A program made the translations under genes and the position numbers. This document shows, one piece after another, positions 1,208-42,171 of a DNA stretch of 64,000 bases (the stretch's first letter is position 1; each line of letters starts with the position of its first letter). The notes under the pieces are model-generated. The model did no database searches and was not told the DNA's origin. It saw only the letters and a program-made list of their open reading frames with translations. The stretch covers positions 7 through 64,006 of the forward strand of contig DQVX01000016.1 in NCBI GenBank assembly GCA_015661515.1. Direction: 5' to 3'. The stretch is from Nanobdellota archaeon (GTDB taxonomy: Archaea; Aenigmatarchaeota; Aenigmatarchaeia; Aenigmatarchaeales; SZUA-1535).

Positions 1208-2128
1208 TCATTTTGATTTAAGCTTGCGCAGGAAAAGTGTTTTAGCTTGATTTAAATAATCTTTTTTAATAACATTTGGTTTATCTAAATCGCTATGATA
1301 AAAATTCCATAGCTTTTTCATTTTTGAACTAAGTAAAAACATTTTTTCTTCCCATTTTTCTATATTTTTTAAAGGTAGTGCTTCTACGAGAAACTCTTTA
1401 CTCAATATAGGTTTATCGAAGCCTATACAATCCACAACAAAAATTTTCTTGCAATTTTCAAGTATAGCTTTGTATTCTTCTTCAAATATTCTATACCCTA
1501 CGCCCCAATAAATAGGTTTATCAAATGATAACTCTTCAGAACCTGAAAAAATAAAAGCATTCTCTTTAAGAAGTTCTGGTTTTTCTTTTATTATGCTTAT
1601 AAGCAAAGCTACACCAGAAGCGTTATCTACAGCACCTTTTTTTACTGTATCATAATGCGAAAAAATAACAAATTTTGGATTTTCTAAATTTCCAACAATA
1701 AGATTTTTTGAAGTATATTTTTCTTTTTTAACTTTTACTCTCCCTTCTATTTGCTCTGCCTCAAGAATATGCTTCACATTCTTTTTTTCTATAGCTATGG
1801 AAGGCGCAAAATAAAATGTTGCTAAGCTTATAACTTTGCAATATGGATTGAAATTTATGTTAGGAAAATTGAAAAAACGTGCAGAAATATAAATAGAAGG
1901 AATTAATACCTTTTCATCTATTTTTCCTGAAATAAAAGCTGTTGCTTCACATGGTATATTGTTTCCATCAGCTATGAGTTTTGCTTTTCCTATTGGTATA
2001 GCATTTTTGAATTTTTGTTCATAAATATCTATACCAGAAAGTTCATCTTTAATTATTTTTACTGCTTTCTTTTCATTCTTTCCTTTTCTCGGAGATACAC
2101 TTTCTAATTTTTTTATTATTTCAAGCAT
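1208..2128 (-). CDS. M28-family Zn aminopeptidase-like protein
   Basis: Motifs 'SHYDTV', 'VDNASGVA' and 'GSEE' match the M28 metal-ligand signature (H-x-D, D-N-x-S-G, EE). Confidence 0.6.
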   Translation of the reverse strand: MLEIIKKLESVSPRKGKNEKKAVKIIKDELSGIDIYEQKFKNAIPIGKAKLIADGNNIPCEATAFISGKIDEKVLIPSIYISARFFNFPNINFNPYCKVISLATFYFAPSIAIEKKNVKHILEAEQIEGRVKVKKEKYTSKNLIVGNLENPKFVIFSHYDTVKKGAVDNASGVALLISIIKEKPELLKENAFIFSGSEELSFDKPIYWGVGYRIFEEEYKAILENCKKIFVVDCIGFDKPILSKEFLVEALPLKNIEKWEEKMFLLSSKMKKLWNFYHSDLDKPNVIKKDYLNQAKTLFLRKLKSK

Positions 2129-2373
2129 TTTAAAAGCACCTTGGCAACAGTTTCGGAAATGTTATATATAGGTGTGTTATTATTTATTTCTATTTCTTTT
2201 TCCACATCCTTAATTATTTTTTCTTCCATTTCTTCTATTCTTTCTCTTTCTTCAGAAATATAAAGCCATTCAGGATATTTTGCCAATTTCTTGTAATTTT
2301 CATCTTTTCCGACATCATAAAACGGAATTTTCATATCCCTTCCTTGCAATTTTTTGTATTTTTTCATCCTCAT
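2116..2373 (-). CDS. hypothetical small protein (85 aa)
   Basis: ORF only. Overlaps the upstream 137-aa ORF by 59 nt, which suggests coupling. Confidence 0.3.
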   Translation of the reverse strand: MRMKKYKKLQGRDMKIPFYDVGKDENYKKLAKYPEWLYISEERERIEEMEEKIIKDVEKEIEINNNTPIYNISETVAKVLLKCLK

Positions 2374-2728
2374 TTTCCCAAGGTGTTACCATAAGCTCAA
2401 TAACTTCTTCTTTAGTTAAGGTTTCACAAAGTTTTTGTGAATAATAGCACTTGTTTTCTTTATCCCAGTCAAACGGATATTCTTTAACTATACCATTATT
2501 TTCTTTTTGTATCCAAACTCTTTCAGTAATATTTCCTGCATTAAGATATTCGGCTAAAAACTGAGAAAACATGTATGAACAATCCTTAGGATTAAGCTCA
2601 TAAATCTTCCAATGATATTCTGGAAGTTTTTCACCAGAAGTTGTTATTATTTCTCTCAAAACTTCTTTTTCTTCAGGTTTTGCTATTTTCTTTCTTTTTA
2701 TACCTTTTAGTATTCTTTTATTAACCAA
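2315..2728 (-). CDS. hypothetical protein (137 aa)
   Basis: ORF with plausible composition; no recognisable motif. Confidence 0.4.
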   Translation of the reverse strand: MVNKRILKGIKRKKIAKPEEKEVLREIITTSGEKLPEYHWKIYELNPKDCSYMFSQFLAEYLNAGNITERVWIQKENNGIVKEYPFDWDKENKCYYSQKLCETLTKEEVIELMVTPWENEDEKIQKIARKGYENSVL

Positions 2729-3142
2729 ACTTGCTTTATATGGATTAAAAGATACATATCCATCAGCCGTAAAACTTAAAGGAGTATAATTCCTTCAATG
2801 TTCTTAGTCGGCACTTGCCTTGCAAGACCTATATAAATTTCTTCATTTTCTCTTTCTTCAAATTTTAAATGTGAAGTAATTTCATCTATATCTATGCCAT
2901 ATTCCCGAAGATAATTCTTTCTTATTCTATCTCTTGTTTCTTCTATTTTTCTTTTTTTCTCTTTTATTTCACTAATAGAAGTTGCATAAGGAAAACTCCA
3001 TGTAAGGAGGAGAGCGGTTTGGACTTAAAAGGAAAGCAGGAGCATTTGCCCCCGATCTCCTCCTAAACCTGTGAAAAATATAAACATAAGGAAAATTACA
3101 AATATCCAAATTTAAAAATTAAAAAAGAAAAAGAAATAAACT

Positions 3143-3289
3143 TCATTTTCTAAAGTTTTTATGTTTCTGAAAACACTCTCTACAATATACAGGTCTTCCT
3201 TCTTTTGGTTTAAATGGAACTGTACATTCCTTTCCACAATCGCTGCATATTGCTTTATGAAATGTTCTTTTTTGGAATCTCCTATTCAC
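3143..3289 (-). CDS. small CxxC-x17-CxxC zinc-ribbon protein (48 aa), not in ORF track
   Basis: GTG start sits 6 nt after a 'GGTGG' SD-like element. Protein 'VNRRFQKRTFHKAICSDCGKECTVPFKPKEGRPVYCRECFQKHKNFRK' has the conserved C-x2-C-G-K-E...VPF-x-P...RPVYC-x-x-C zinc-ribbon pattern of a widespread small-protein family. The antisense 67-aa ORF 3161..3364 is rejected in its favour. Confidence 0.6.
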   Translation of the reverse strand: MNRRFQKRTFHKAICSDCGKECTVPFKPKEGRPVYCRECFQKHKNFRK

Positions 3290-3422
3290 TTCTTTCCACC
3301 TTTTAAGCCTCGGAGAAAGAGATCAAAAACCAAACTCTTTCTCCAAGGACTTACTCTTAATTAAGGGAATTAATAGTATTTAAAGGTATGGGTCTCATTG
3401 AATTAAGAGTTTTGTCTAACAC

Positions 3423-4601
3423 TTACACCAAAGGTCCGAAAAAGCTGTAAAGAAGTATGGAAAGTATAAAAAACGAAATTATTTTTGTTATTTTAATAGC
3501 TTGTTCTTCGCTTAACTTTTCTTCTAGAATAGCTTTAATCATATGCCCACCATCTAAAGGATAAAGAGGAAGTATATTAACTACAGCTACAGCAAAACTT
3601 AAAAGTGATAAAATTGCAAGAAATTTAAATAAAAATTCAAAGCCATTGCATTTAGTTCCAACAACAATGCCTATAAAAGGAGCTTTCTCTATTTGTGGAT
3701 GTTCTCCCAAAGTTACAGTAAAATTGCCTTTATCCGTTTCTATTACTATACTATCTCCAGGTTTAAAAGTATAATTAGAAAAACTCCAATTAGTTAAAAT
3801 TCCTACTAAATAAATTCTTGCTGCAACATCTTCTGGATTTTGTTTTGCTAGCACAAAATTTGAGTAAAAACCAAAATCGAAAAATAGTTCTTTCCCATTA
3901 ATGCTTTTTATTATCATACCTTCTTTTATTCCGGCAAGCTCTGCAGGAGAATTTTCAACAACTTTTTTTACATATACTCCATCTACCAAGAAAAACCATA
4001 AATGAGATGCTAATAGAAATACTAAGAATGATACTACAATATTTGCAAAACTTCCTGCTGAAAAAACTCTAAGCTTTGCTATAAGTTTCTTTCTTTTTAA
4101 CTGCTTTTCATCAGGCTCTACAAATGCTCCTGGAAAAATTAAAAAAAGTAATAAACCTACAGATTTTAATCTTATTTTCTCAACCCTTGCCATTATTCCA
4201 TGAGCAAATTCGTGTGGAAACAGAATAAAGAAAATTGTTAATATCCATATCCAAAAAGGAAGAAATATATGAGCATAACCTATTTCAGCATTTTTTACAG
4301 GAGCTGGAAGTACAAGCTTTATTCCTGATTCTTTTATTTCATCTTTTGCAACTCTTACAGCATTTTCTATAAGGTAAAAAACTCCAAAAAACATGAAGTA
4401 AAAGCATATAATTATACTAATAATTCCTATTATTTTCCATGCACGCGGAGATTTTTTAGCAATTCTATCTATTATTTCAATAAATCTTTTAGTTTTATAA
4501 AGAACTACTAGACCTTCAACTTCTATTTTTTCTCTTTTTTTCCATATGGCAATTCCAACAAAAACTATAAAAGCTATAATTGAAAGTGTGTGAAAATCCA
4601 T
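3423..4601 (-). CDS. site-2 protease (M50 family, RseP/S2P-like) with PDZ domain
   Basis: HExxH sits in a TM helix ('FPHEFAHGIMA'). The second metal-ligand motif 'LPLYPLDGGHM' is present. Multiple TM segments. Confidence 0.8.
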   Translation of the reverse strand: MDFHTLSIIAFIVFVGIAIWKKREKIEVEGLVVLYKTKRFIEIIDRIAKKSPRAWKIIGIISIIICFYFMFFGVFYLIENAVRVAKDEIKESGIKLVLPAPVKNAEIGYAHIFLPFWIWILTIFFILFPHEFAHGIMARVEKIRLKSVGLLLFLIFPGAFVEPDEKQLKRKKLIAKLRVFSAGSFANIVVSFLVFLLASHLWFFLVDGVYVKKVVENSPAELAGIKEGMIIKSINGKELFFDFGFYSNFVLAKQNPEDVAARIYLVGILTNWSFSNYTFKPGDSIVIETDKGNFTVTLGEHPQIEKAPFIGIVVGTKCNGFEFLFKFLAILSLLSFAVAVVNILPLYPLDGGHMIKAILEEKLSEEQAIKITKIISFFILSILLYSFFGPLV

Positions 4602-4605
4602 ACAC

Positions 4606-5841
4606 TCACCATTTTACTTTCTCTATTTTTATTACATCAAGCTCAACCACTTTTGCTGGAACTCCTAAAATCTCTGCTACACTTGGACGAGTTCTTCCAT
4701 TATCTCCTGAAACCAGCTCTTTTACATAAAGTCCTGCAGAACATTTTATTATAAGCTCTACTGTTTTTGAATTTATATATTTCCATTTTATAGCTTTTAC
4801 TTCTCTTTTTCTAAGCTTATCAGCCCTTCTATGAAGAACTCTTTCAGGAGTTTGCTGGTTTATAACTCCAATAAGTTTTCTTAGTTTTTTAAGCTCTTCT
4901 TTTTTTACAGGTTTTTCAAATTTTACAACCACTCTATATGTTTTATCCGGAGAAGCTTCTTTAACTTTTCTTACCATTTCTCTTTCTACAAGTTTAAGTC
5001 CTTTTACTTTAACTTTTTTAGAAGCATTTATTTGTTTTGCAATTTCTTTAAGGTTTATTTTTCTTTTTTTAGGTTCAATTATTTCTATAACAAATGCTCT
5101 CCAGGCAAGGCATCGAGCATCTATATCTTCTCGACCCATTCCGTGAAATTTTGTATCTTTACCTTTAGTTGCTTTAAGCAAAGGTTTTGCTATAATTTGC
5201 TCTACAGAAGTTTTATATTTCCCTGGTGTTCCCCATTTGCATTGCGGAATTCCTCGAACTAATTTTTGATAATAACCAAAAATAAAGAGAGAAGATATTT
5301 GAATTTCTATTTTTGGTTTGCCTTTTTCCCAGTCAAAAAGTATAACAACTTCTGGCTTTTTTAATTCAGCTGTTTTTTTCATTTTCTGAGAAATTAATTT
5401 TCCTAACTCTCTGTTAAGCTCAGCCTTTAAAGGTTCGCAATAATCCATTCCTGCCAATTTCCACATTTCTTCTTCCTTTTCCAACATTTCTTTTGAAGGT
5501 CGATTTCCTACTAAGAATGTATTAAACTCTATTTTTTCAAGTTTTTTGATAGCCTTTTCAGCTATTTTTTCAAGTTTTTCAAATATATTTCCGCAAAAAT
5601 AACAATTAAGTTTTTTCTTAGAAGAGGTTTTTTTAGTTAACCTAAAATTATATTCATTGAAATTTTCTTGAGCAAAATTCTCAAGCTCTTGTGCTTCAAT
5701 AAGAAATGCTGCAAAATCTCTTATAATTCTACCTCTTTCTTTATTACTCATTCCACTAAGCATTTGAGCAAAAACTCTTCCTAAACAATTATCGCAAATA
5801 GGTTTTTGGAGTAAATTTTTTATTCTTTCAATTAACTCCAT
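4606..5841 (-). CDS. pus10: tRNA pseudouridine synthase Pus10 (psi54/psi55)
   Basis: 411 aa. N-terminal 'ICDNCLGRVFA' zinc-binding start typical of archaeal Pus10; THUMP-like middle; basic C-terminal catalytic domain. Confidence 0.6.
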   Translation of the reverse strand: MELIERIKNLLQKPICDNCLGRVFAQMLSGMSNKERGRIIRDFAAFLIEAQELENFAQENFNEYNFRLTKKTSSKKKLNCYFCGNIFEKLEKIAEKAIKKLEKIEFNTFLVGNRPSKEMLEKEEEMWKLAGMDYCEPLKAELNRELGKLISQKMKKTAELKKPEVVILFDWEKGKPKIEIQISSLFIFGYYQKLVRGIPQCKWGTPGKYKTSVEQIIAKPLLKATKGKDTKFHGMGREDIDARCLAWRAFVIEIIEPKKRKINLKEIAKQINASKKVKVKGLKLVEREMVRKVKEASPDKTYRVVVKFEKPVKKEELKKLRKLIGVINQQTPERVLHRRADKLRKREVKAIKWKYINSKTVELIIKCSAGLYVKELVSGDNGRTRPSVAEILGVPAKVVELDVIKIEKVKW

Positions 5842-15177: not shown

Positions 15178-16440
15178 ATGCTAAATAAAGTTTTAGAAGT
15201 AGTAAAAATGCAAAATTTGTGGAGAAGGAAACAATGCTTAAATATGATAGCAAGTGAAAATGTTCTCTCTCCTTTAGCAGAAAAGCTTTATATTTCTGAT
15301 TTTGAAGGCCGATATAATGAACATGATGAAGAATGCCACTACCAAGGCACAAAATATGCTATGGAAATAGAAAATATTGTTAATAAAATTTTTGGAGAAA
15401 AGTTTTCAACACCTTTTGTTGATTGTAGACCAATAGCAGGAGCTATAGCAAATCTTTGCGTATATCATGCTTTTCTTAAGCCTGGTGATGTTTTTATAGC
15501 CCCAGGCTTAACAGCAGGTGCTCATGTTTCTTCTACAGAATACGGAATAGCAAGTGTTAAAGGATTAAAAAGTATTTCAGCTTTTTTTGACTTCGAAAGA
15601 TTTGTGCTTGATGTAGATAAAACAGCTTTACTTATAGAAAAGCTCAATCCAAAACTTATTATGCTTGGTCGCTCTGTTTTTCTTTTTCCCGAGCCTATTA
15701 AAGAACTTAGAGAAATAGCAGGAGATTCAATAATAGTTTATGATGCTGCTCATGTTTTTGGATTAATTTATGCAAACGAGTTTCAATCTCCTTTTGAAGA
15801 AGGAGCTGATATAATTACAGCATCCACTCATAAAACATTTCCAGGTCCACAGGGGGGAATAATACTTGCTAAAGCAGATTTTGATGAACAAAAATGGAAA
15901 AAAATACAAAGAGCTATATTTCCAGGAGTAATTAGCAATCATCACATTCACCGCTTACCTGCTCTTGCGGTTACAGCTTTAGAGATGAATGAATTTGGAG
16001 AAAGTTATGCCAAGCAAATAATAAAAAATGCTAAATGTTTTGCACAAGCTTTATATGAGCTTGGATTTAATGTGCTTTGCGAAGAATATGGGTTTACAAA
16101 TTCACATCAAATTCTTGTTGATGTTAAAAATCTTGGTGGTGGAAAAATAGTAGCAGAAAAACTTGAAAAGGCTAATATTATTACAAATAAAATTGCTTTG
16201 CCATGGGATAAAGATAAAGATGCTACCCAAAACCCTTCTGGTATTAGAATAGGTGTACAAGAACTTACAAGATGGGGAATGACACAAAGCGAAATGAAAG
16301 AAATTGCAGAATTTTTCAAAAAAGTTTTAATAGATAACCAAGATCCAAGTAAAGTAAAACAAGAAGTCATAGAGTTTAGAAAGAATTTCCAAGAAATTAA
16401 ATATGCTTTTTCTTTAGAAGGTGAAATTTATGAAGTATAA
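15178..16440 (+). CDS. glyA: serine hydroxymethyltransferase
   Basis: 'MIASENVLSPLAEK' and the PLP-lysine region 'TASTHKTFPGPQGG'; 420 aa. Confidence 0.9.
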   Translation: MLNKVLEVVKMQNLWRRKQCLNMIASENVLSPLAEKLYISDFEGRYNEHDEECHYQGTKYAMEIENIVNKIFGEKFSTPFVDCRPIAGAIANLCVYHAFLKPGDVFIAPGLTAGAHVSSTEYGIASVKGLKSISAFFDFERFVLDVDKTALLIEKLNPKLIMLGRSVFLFPEPIKELREIAGDSIIVYDAAHVFGLIYANEFQSPFEEGADIITASTHKTFPGPQGGIILAKADFDEQKWKKIQRAIFPGVISNHHIHRLPALAVTALEMNEFGESYAKQIIKNAKCFAQALYELGFNVLCEEYGFTNSHQILVDVKNLGGGKIVAEKLEKANIITNKIALPWDKDKDATQNPSGIRIGVQELTRWGMTQSEMKEIAEFFKKVLIDNQDPSKVKQEVIEFRKNFQEIKYAFSLEGEIYEV

Positions 16441-42074: not shown

Positions 42075-42171
42075 AGCGGGGTAGGGCAGCCAGGAGTGCC
42101 CGCCGGGCTCATAATATATTATTTAATGAGACACCCGGAGGTCGGTGGTTCAAATCCACCCCCCGCTACCA
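42075..42171 (+). tRNA. initiator tRNA-Met(CAT) with canonical 19-nt 37/38 intron; CCA encoded
   Basis: A1:U72 acceptor pair ('AGCGGGG/CCCCGCT'); three G-C pairs at the base of the anticodon stem ('CCGGG/CCCGG'); loop 'CTCATA|A' split by intron 42114..42132; T-arm 'GGTGG TTCAAAT CCACC'. Confidence 0.85.

Follow-up and report, generated by a model that had tools for sequence, protein, structure and literature searches.

This study concerns a locus on the minus strand of a 64,000-nt stretch of contig DQVX01000016.1 of a Nanobdellota archaeon; the whole stretch is called the window in the following. The locus contains a hairpin (2998..3068, minus strand) that is probably a conserved cis-acting leader RNA, with a decayed gene behind it. 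The original prediction, which was made from the window sequence, had described an unannotated locus with three features, i.e., a gene for a mini-protein with a zinc ribbon, a hairpin followed by ACA, and an open reading frame (ORF) without a start codon. All three features exist, and no gene had been called at the locus in six conspecific assemblies. However, the features do not form one unit: the hairpin and the start-less ORF belong together, while the mini-protein gene is separate. The locus thus consists of two unrelated units, namely the mini-protein gene and an operon of the leader, a gene of about 330 aa and a gene for an M28-like peptidase. As an RNA structure, the leader motif is new and has not been catalogued, although its general kind is known. 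The mini-protein ORF (mini-ORF) and the pseudogene are ordinary.

Conservation of the hairpin

Distant relatives were retrieved with homologues of the adjacent M28-like peptidase (window 1208-2128) as anchors, and the loci are designated by L numbers. The relatives examined that have an intact copy of the gene are L090, L094, L095, L098, L100, L101 and L108. A DNA-pattern scan of metagenomes of the Joint Genome Institute (JGI) returned three true and two chance loci and contributed L105-L107, while L108 was added separately; a protein-pattern scan of the JGI metagenomes gave no match. In total, the hairpin was found in 11 sequences from about five lineages of the Aenigmatarchaeota (the window with L001 and L090; L094; L100 and L105; L095 and L108; L098, L106 and L107). 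The stem singled out by the original prediction is, therefore, conserved in relatives.

Two alignments were used, A3 with 10 and A5 with 11 sequences. RNAalifold analysis of A3 revealed a single long hairpin, which is composed of a helix P1 of 12-13 bp, an AAA bulge, a helix P1b of 4 bp (GGGC/GYCC), and a pyrimidine-rich loop of 17-23 nt, so that the total helix comprises 16-17 bp. The fraction of paired cells was 97.5% in A3 and 96.3% in A5, compared to only 41-63% when the pairing partners were slid by one to three columns. Four pairs were altered on both sides, from G-C to A-U or the reverse, in 11-13 cells, and none of 500 shuffles matched the observed paired fraction or the covariation score. 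In addition, several unpaired nucleotides were invariant, i.e., the AAA bulge, the URAG before P1b, and an A and a U in the loop.

The covariance model (CM) R1 matched the window with 79 bits (E 5e-16) on the minus strand, while the plus strand scored 17.8 bits. This strand asymmetry and the G.U pairs point to an RNA of the sense strand rather than to a DNA palindrome. The CM revealed no second copy of the motif in the 64-kb window. Its search of about 0.9 Mb from other archaeal loci returned only the motif loci that were already known and one 27-bit match (E 0.004), which is located in the bacterial locus L104 and was judged to be due to chance. No Rfam family matched the motif, up to an E value of 10 in the window region and up to 1 in five relatives; with gathering and with permissive thresholds, Rfam searches of the window and the five relatives yielded only tRNAs and sub-threshold chance matches.

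Two other folds were considered and rejected. One is a proximal hairpin that has the minimum free energy (MFE) when the window sequence is folded with its flank; it was 80.5% paired, 93 of 500 shuffles reached this value, and it was thus not above the controls. The other combines P1 with a local P2 hairpin (CGGGGGC/GCUCCUG), which was 80% paired in the P2 helix and lacked changes on both sides.

Structure of the hairpin in the window

In the window, P1 is formed by pairing of 3064-3052 with 3017-3005 (12-13 bp), the AAA bulge is located on the 3' strand (3020-3018), and P1b is formed by GGGC (3051-3048) and GUCC (3024-3021), which enclose the pyrimidine-rich loop (3047-3025). The stem that had been flagged originally represents the outer 8 bp of P1 (3006..3063, minus strand), and this exact repeat is kept and covaries in relatives. 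Its arms are GGAGGAGA (3063-3056) and UCUCCUCC (3013-3006; TCTCCTCC in the form of the DNA listing), they are separated by 42 nt, and TTACA follows directly after the stem (3005-3001). The 8-bp stem, the 42-nt loop and the TTACA had, therefore, been described correctly, but the coordinates that had been given, 3001..3058, missed the upstream end by 5 nt. The perfect stem is really 9 bp long, because the flanking A-U pair has to be included (3005-3013 with 3056-3064).

The stem alone does not exceed chance expectation. In a first-order Markov resample of the 64 kb, in which the mononucleotide transition frequencies were kept, about 1.1 G+C-rich perfect 8-bp stems were expected, compared to three counts in the window, two of which are the flagged stem. 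The stem was, therefore, judged to be real because of the comparison with relatives, and not because of the window sequence alone. Apart from this stem, the window contains just one perfect inverted repeat of 8 bp that is G+C-rich and has a short loop, at 15478-15509 (plus strand, AAGCCTGG, 16-nt loop).

When trimmed sequences were folded, the conserved fold was the MFE structure in eight of ten cases, and in the window it was within 0.4 kcal/mol of the MFE. With more 5' flank, ViennaRNA preferred the different, proximal hairpin in the window (-32.4 kcal/mol, z -3.4). Two weakening changes are found in the window copy alone, a U.C mismatch (3055/3014) and a G.U pair (3049/3023) that is G-C in the others. 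They fit a relaxed constraint, as expected for a hairpin with a dead gene behind it. The surroundings of the hairpin are G+C-rich within an AT-rich genome.

Position of the hairpin relative to the start codon

In five relatives an ORF opens directly behind the hairpin. In L094, L098 and L100 it starts with a UUG 0-3 nt past the hairpin, and in L095 and L108 with a GUG 5 nt past the hairpin. Gene callers had picked these starts in four of the five contigs (L094, L098, L100, L108), while in L095 an ATG further downstream had been called. Every lineage with a canonical start uses a weak codon, UUG or GUG. The motif block precedes the gene in every lineage but the most distant one, L101. The upstream neighbours, on the other hand, vary and include genes for NurA, EF-2, RFC and aIF-2, mostly on the opposite strand: the upstream gene is located on the other strand in L095, L098, L100 and L108, and NurA is the neighbour in L094. 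In L090 and L001 the hairpin has been kept although the mini-ORF has decayed. Because the start codon of one and the same family follows the end of the hairpin within 0-5 nt, irrespective of the gene upstream, the hairpin was assigned as a 5' leader.

The window, L001 and L090 form a clade with an AUG 2-3 nt past the helix, whose frame is shifted by +1 relative to the long ORF. In the window this AUG (2999..3001, minus strand) is located 3 nt past the helix, at the start site of the relatives. The comparison of ATG GAG TTT T CCT TAT in the window with TTG TTC GAG TTC CCT TAT in L100 revealed an extra base in the T run at 2992-2995. It is common to the window, L001 and L090, and the extra T is regarded as real because it is present in independent assemblies.

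Putative archaeal promoter elements, CCTTATG / TTTATATT, were recognized at 3077..3090 (minus strand), 13-26 nt upstream of P1. The conservation between the window and L001 resumes at about 3112, i.e., about 45 nt upstream of P1, and includes the promoter box, while the sequences further upstream could not be aligned. A similar YCYTTAT box was seen by eye in L090, L098, L100 and L094. The YCYTTAT/TTTATATT box suggests that transcription may start at or near the base of the helix, and that the helix would thus be a 5'-terminal stem-loop. For comparison, among the 56 ORFs of the window with 150 aa or more, many are preceded by a TATA-like box 20-27 nt ahead of the start codon, and about one fifth by a GGTG(A/G) Shine-Dalgarno (SD) motif. 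Most of the first genes have the TATA-like box 20-27 nt before the ATG, which suggests leaderless mRNAs, while internal genes have a GGUGA SD motif. Compared to the leaderless genes with TATA-like boxes and to the genes with SD motifs in the window, a structured leader of about 65 nt is exceptional.

L105 differs from the other loci. At L105 (1614-2914) the motif scores 77.9 bits and is followed by an ORF of 377-409 aa, for which hhalign gave a probability of 1% for a relationship to the family. The first canonical start of this ORF is located 97 nt past the helix. Either the ORF is a very divergent homologue, or the leader is attached to another gene.

The decayed gene downstream of the hairpin

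The start-less ORF, which had been proposed to be a possible gene remnant, is the true N-terminus, with an xSFPY motif, of a decayed gene of a family of about 330 aa. The frame, here called fragment A, is open at 2779..3024 (minus strand; 82 codons, stop at 2778-2776) and contains the peptide quoted originally. It has no ATG, GTG or TTG until a GTG 12 codons before the end of the frame, and the N-terminus typical of the family, WSFPYATSI..., begins at 3000. Fragment B is found at 2315..2794 (minus strand), where a 137-aa ORF had been called from the TTG at 2728. Fragment C, an 85-aa ORF at 2116..2373 (minus strand), overlaps the start of the gene for the M28-like peptidase. Fragments A and B are parted by a frameshifting deletion of 37 nt, fragment B lacks a segment of 99 nt, and fragments B and C are parted by a frameshifting deletion of 35 nt. 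DNA alignments with L001 revealed that the 37-nt and the 35-nt deletions are present in the window and in all conspecific assemblies. The 99-nt segment is in frame, it is missing in the window and some strains, and it is present in L001, L002 and L009.

The deletions remove residues that are otherwise invariant, i.e., A218, P220, A222, Y225, Y226, P234 and G235 as well as K266, E267, G270 and P273. They belong to the blocks ARPDA..YY...PG and KE..G.YP, which are invariant in the alignments A2 and A4 and are stripped by the 99-nt and the 35-nt deletions. Because the frames are broken and invariant residues are lost, the window gene was judged to be a pseudogene that has fallen into three pieces in three frames.

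A conceptual fusion of the open frames had only three homologues. One of them, P0003 of contig L001, is a continuous ORF of 289 aa that spans the three consecutive ORFs of the window. An intact gene for 314-368 aa is located directly upstream of the M28-like gene in L090, L094, L095, L098, L100, L101 and L108, and no Pfam domain was found in these seven orthologues. In six of the seven loci it overlaps the M28-like gene, and in L100 the two genes abut with a 1-nt gap. The relatives have the N-termini (M)FSFPYV, (M)NFPYI and (M)FEFPYV, and [FL]PY[VI] at residues 3-7 is a hallmark of the family. The FPY codons differ synonymously (TTT CCT TAT versus TTC CCG TAC), and the region is therefore coding sequence. 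An exhaustive profile search yielded 134 cluster representatives, 19 of them below 1e-30. Sequence searches revealed no relative of the family in Pfam, NCBIfam or PDB, and the AlphaFold model had a predicted local distance difference test (pLDDT) score of 48.7, which is too poor for a fold search.

Several observations were made on individual strains and on further loci. Several public assemblies break inside the decayed gene (window 2100-2800, minus strand; L002-L009). The 99-nt segment is polymorphic, L003 could be aligned only to just before it, L005 has a gap of N's there, and L009 has an additional 1-nt deletion in the decayed gene. These differences indicate that the decay is ongoing and that the strains are heterogeneous. 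A weak tblastn match to P0003 (28% identity, E 2e-4) was found in L021 and L023 (9497-9775, minus strand), two other metagenome-assembled genomes of Aenigmatarchaeota, about 2.4 kb from the gene for the S2P protease. It is possibly a distant member of the family, and the RNA motif was not detected at these two loci.

A possible role in translational control and alternative explanations

The 5' arm of the helix is purine-rich and SD-like, while the 3' arm is pyrimidine-rich and anti-SD-like (CUCUCCUCC), and it would occupy the place where an SD motif is normally located. We infer that the leader is transcribed together with the gene. The folded helix would then limit the access of the ribosome to the start codon 0-5 nt downstream and exert control in cis, and as a 5'-terminal stem-loop it might also add to the stability of the mRNA. 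The AAA bulge and the URAG...A that closes the loop are invariant and would probably be read by a trans-acting factor. This factor could be a small ligand or a protein, in the latter case perhaps one encoded by the operon itself. In the window genome the gene behind the leader is dead, with the AUG +1 out of frame, two frameshifting deletions and the 99-nt deletion. Translational control by occlusion of this type is the most likely mechanism, but it is a tentative proposal with slightly less than even odds. The identification as a leader and the mechanism taken as one reading are reasonably likely to be correct, somewhat less so than the identification of the leader with its decayed gene.

Several points weigh against this reading. 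The motif is carried by only about five independent lineages, all covarying pairs are purine/pyrimidine swaps within a compositionally biased helix, and related sequences can outscore shuffles even if they are unstructured. When 5' flank is added, the MFE structure of the window and of L001 is the alternative proximal hairpin. The more distant homologue L101 lacks the motif, and the ORF behind the motif in L105 has no recognizable homology to the family. The distance between TATA box and transcription start that is typical for the genome could place the transcript start inside the 5' arm. The candidate trans-acting factor or ligand is putative, and the pieces of the window gene might still be translated one by one.

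The features of the leader also bear on the possibility that it is a ligand-sensing riboswitch, in which the hairpin would be the aptamer and the G run would alternatively pair with the pyrimidine tract of the loop and thereby free or occlude the start region. The invariant unpaired nucleotides mentioned above and the location directly beside the start codon are in line with this idea, as are alternative pairings of the 5' purine arm in most lineages and the possibly different gene behind the motif in L105. However, the alternative pairings were not above the controls, as described above, and the structure is a single hairpin with no multi-stem junction and no supported pseudoknot. There is one copy per genome region examined and no Rfam match, and a candidate ligand cannot be named from the gene. 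A riboswitch is, therefore, considered to be unlikely. Similarly unlikely is a programmed +1 frameshift in the clade of the window, L001 and L090, which would turn AUG GAG UUU_UCC into MEF-PYATSI... when tRNA-Phe slips from UUU to UUU while the rare codon UCC waits in the A site. The start-less frame would then be a translated one, at least where the relatives have an intact gene, and such a shift is plausible as a mechanism. In its favour, the AUG lies 2-3 nt past the helix, where the relatives start, the sequence AUG GAG UUU UCC is identical in the three members of the clade in independent assemblies, and the restored M-E-F-P-Y fits the N-termini MSEFPYV and MFELPYV of the family. Furthermore, UCC occurs at 2.3 per 1000 codons versus 20.4 per 1000 for CCU, tRNA-Phe re-pairs perfectly, and L001 and L090 have kept ORFs of about 350 and about 345 codons with a ratio of nonsynonymous to synonymous substitution rates (dN/dS) of 0.33 from codon 63 to the end. 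Against it, dN/dS is about 1.1 in the first 62 codons (L001 versus L090; 34 synonymous sites; rich in Lys, Glu and Arg), new starts may be available, in L090 at codon 20 (ATG, in frame) and in L001 at codon 63 (GTG), and the window gene is broken further downstream regardless. An ancestral frameshift that became fixed in the clade, together with these internal starts, explains the data equally well. The further-reaching version, that the hairpin is the first of a DPANN-specific (Aenigmatarchaeota) class of switches, a self-contained SD/anti-SD-like helix with the AAA bulge that responds to a trans-acting factor (metabolite or protein) and gates the start 0-5 nt behind it, with the gene of the clade decoded via a +1 frameshift at UUU_UCC, is regarded as speculative and unlikely as well.

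An independent, trans-acting small RNA (sRNA) gene of about 65 nt that is merely located upstream of a protein gene would fit the G+C-rich region in an AT-rich genome, and the TATA-like boxes upstream and U-runs after the helix that are seen in several lineages. But these U-runs encode the Phe of the xFPY motif at the conserved N-terminus, the spacing of 0-5 nt to the start of one family is fixed though the upstream genes differ, and the motif is absent where the gene lies within an operon (L101), so that this explanation is quite improbable. Even less probable is a function as a terminator or other 3' structure for the mini-ORF, or as a palindromic DNA operator. In the window the hairpin is located 79 nt downstream of the stop codon of the mini-ORF, and an inverted repeat near a promoter could be an operator. 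However, the role as a 3' element, which had been considered originally, is contradicted by the other lineages, where the hairpin follows unrelated or divergent genes (opposite strand in L095, L098, L100 and L108; NurA in L094) and abuts the downstream start codon, and by its retention in L090 and L001 while the mini-ORF decayed. An operator is disfavoured by the G.U pairs and the asymmetry of the CM score, which argue for a sense-strand RNA. The original suggestion of an H/ACA-like guide RNA has practically no probability left. It was based on the ACA 2 nt after the stem in the window, and genes for the RNA-modification proteins Pus10 and fibrillarin are located nearby. The ACA is not conserved, but is AUA in L001 and UUA in L090, and UGUUG, UUUUG, UUUUA or UCGGA is found elsewhere. 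The continuous P1 of 12-13 bp with a one-sided 3-nt AAA bulge and the 4-bp P1b leaves no two-stranded pocket, and the bulge is followed by CC instead of GA. The alignment has no conserved GA/AG pair, and the tandem G.A pairs of a kink-turn (K-turn) or kink-loop (K-loop) for L7Ae are absent. Curated Rfam models gave no match, even with E up to 10.

Two further candidates were rejected. An upstream ORF within the hairpin (MLLLSF*; AUG CUC CUG ... UAA, in frame) has AUA instead of AUG in L094 and varies in length, and read-through or recoding of its stop is unsupported, since TAA is an ordinary stop in this genome and the most frequent one, at the end of 28 of 42 long ORFs. A C/D box RNA was rejected because no C box is present.

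Comparison with known systems

The assignment as a leader that acts in cis has counterparts in the translational operator hairpins of mRNA leaders, which are exemplified by the archaeal L7Ae autoregulation via a K-turn, the leaders of ribosomal protein genes, and the operators of phage T4. These also have a conserved, covarying hairpin beside the start codon with invariant unpaired nucleotides that are suited to a trans-acting factor. In contrast to them, the present hairpin has no K-turn and no similarity to Rfam leaders, and the arm adjacent to the start is anti-SD-like instead of SD-like. The archaeal riboswitches in Rfam (fluoride, TPP) are likewise structured leaders in cis with an outer helix that touches the translation start, but the present hairpin is single, without junction or pseudoknot support, and has no Rfam match. 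With archaeal H/ACA sRNAs it shares the stem and the ACA in the window sequence only, while it has neither a pocket nor a K-turn or K-loop, and its ACA is not conserved. Known +1 frameshift sites are CUU_UGA of prfB and UUU_CGN of influenza PA-X and of amalgaviruses. Like these, the candidate site combines a slippery P-site codon (Phe) with a rare A-site codon in the 0 frame and an abundant +1 codon, and it is conserved in three lineages. Unlike the known sites, it is located at codon 3, just after initiation, and has neither a stop codon nor a known stimulator.

To our knowledge, very few cis-regulatory RNA structures have been described in archaea, essentially none in DPANN, and none in the phylum of the window. 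The motif belongs to a widespread uncharacterized family that is paired with an M28-like peptidase, and it thus offers a handle on the role and the control of this operon. The locus also records decay in a reduced genome, in which the regulator survives while its gene breaks up, and it contains a candidate +1 frameshifting site in archaea.

The zinc mini-protein gene

The gene for the 48-aa CxxC-x17-CxxC zinc mini-protein is located at 3143..3289 (minus strand) and was recognized as an ORF with matches to profile hidden Markov models. It starts with a GTG (3289-3287), and 6 nt upstream a GGTGG is found (3300-3296), which fits the GGTG(A/G) type of SD motif used by the genome of the window. The protein has four cysteines in the arrangement CSDC-GKECTVPFKPKEGRPVY-CREC, i.e., two CxxC pairs that are exactly 17 residues apart. 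It matched TIGR04272 (NCBIfam) with 72.9 bits (cut-off 36) and PF23477 (Pfam) with 71.5 bits (cut-off 27), both with E of about 1e-20, and in both cases residues 8-44 cover the profile positions 1-37 of 37. These findings bear out the C4 ribbon mini-protein with GTG start and SD motif that had been proposed originally. By its sequence, the mini-protein is an ordinary member of the known CxxC-x17-CxxC family. It shares the exact Cys spacing, a similar size and a basic tail with the members of TIGR04272 (cxxc_cxxc_Mbark) and PF23477 (zf_Tbcl_2). In contrast to the homologues from Aenigmatarchaeota at L013 and L020, it does not have an RGG-rich N-terminal extension.

The mini-ORF is single-copy within the window. 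It had not been called by gene callers in the six assemblies of the same species, and an exact-protein look-up returned no record, and, therefore, it has been called nowhere. It is thus one more uncalled member of a family of zinc mini-proteins that is routinely missed by annotation pipelines. In Methanosarcina mazei, members of the family are abundant, proteomically verified, zinc-binding small proteins (PMC12704099). Zinc binding and expression are established for the M. mazei members only and are predicted for the mini-protein of the window.

In the sister lineages the mini-ORF has decayed: in L090 (530-2373) cysteines have been lost, and in L001 (1-120) the sequence diverges after CGKEC. 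In L090, a gene for a DDE transposase is located directly upstream. The decay is reciprocal, i.e., the window has an intact mini-ORF and a broken large gene, while the opposite is the case in L090 and L001. The mini-ORF and the hairpin are unrelated neighbours without a consistent link, because elsewhere the hairpin follows other genes and always abuts the start of the downstream gene.

A second strong hairpin was found at 3303-3354 (minus strand), between the stop of the S2P gene (3423) and the SD motif of the mini-ORF. It has a 14-bp stem (CCUUGGAGAAAGAG/CUCUUUCUCCGAGG), and the 136-nt stretch around it (3290-3425) has a folding z of -3.0. A match to the Rfam family HIV_FS2 with 30.9 bits is below the gathering score of 44 and represents a chance match. 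The region is carried by identical strains only, and the second hairpin may either terminate the S2P gene or serve the mini-ORF as a leader.

Genomic context

The window is archaeal and has a G+C content of about 29%. Very rare codons in it are UCC, CCC, CTG and CGG. The locus is surrounded by further genes on the minus strand: fibrillarin (511-1173) and the M28-like peptidase (1208-2128), which is intact and the downstream partner of the uncharacterized gene, on one side, and the M50/S2P protease (3423-4601) and Pus10 (4606-5841) on the other side. Among the GTDB species representatives, no protein exceeds 45% identity to the S2P protein, and the best matches are from Candidatus Aenigmatarchaeota (DPANN). 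A scan of GTDB genomes that was anchored on S2P yielded 80 loci with at most 45% identity, in which the synteny was not kept, and these loci served only as negative sequence for the CM. Public metagenomes contained six near-identical conspecific assemblies (L004-L009), and no gene had been called between the S2P gene and the 137-aa ORF in any of the six. ARAGORN gave no match. An Rfam match of 51 bits over 94 nt revealed a tRNA at 42075-42168 (plus strand) that ARAGORN had missed; it is probably an archaeal tRNA with an intron.

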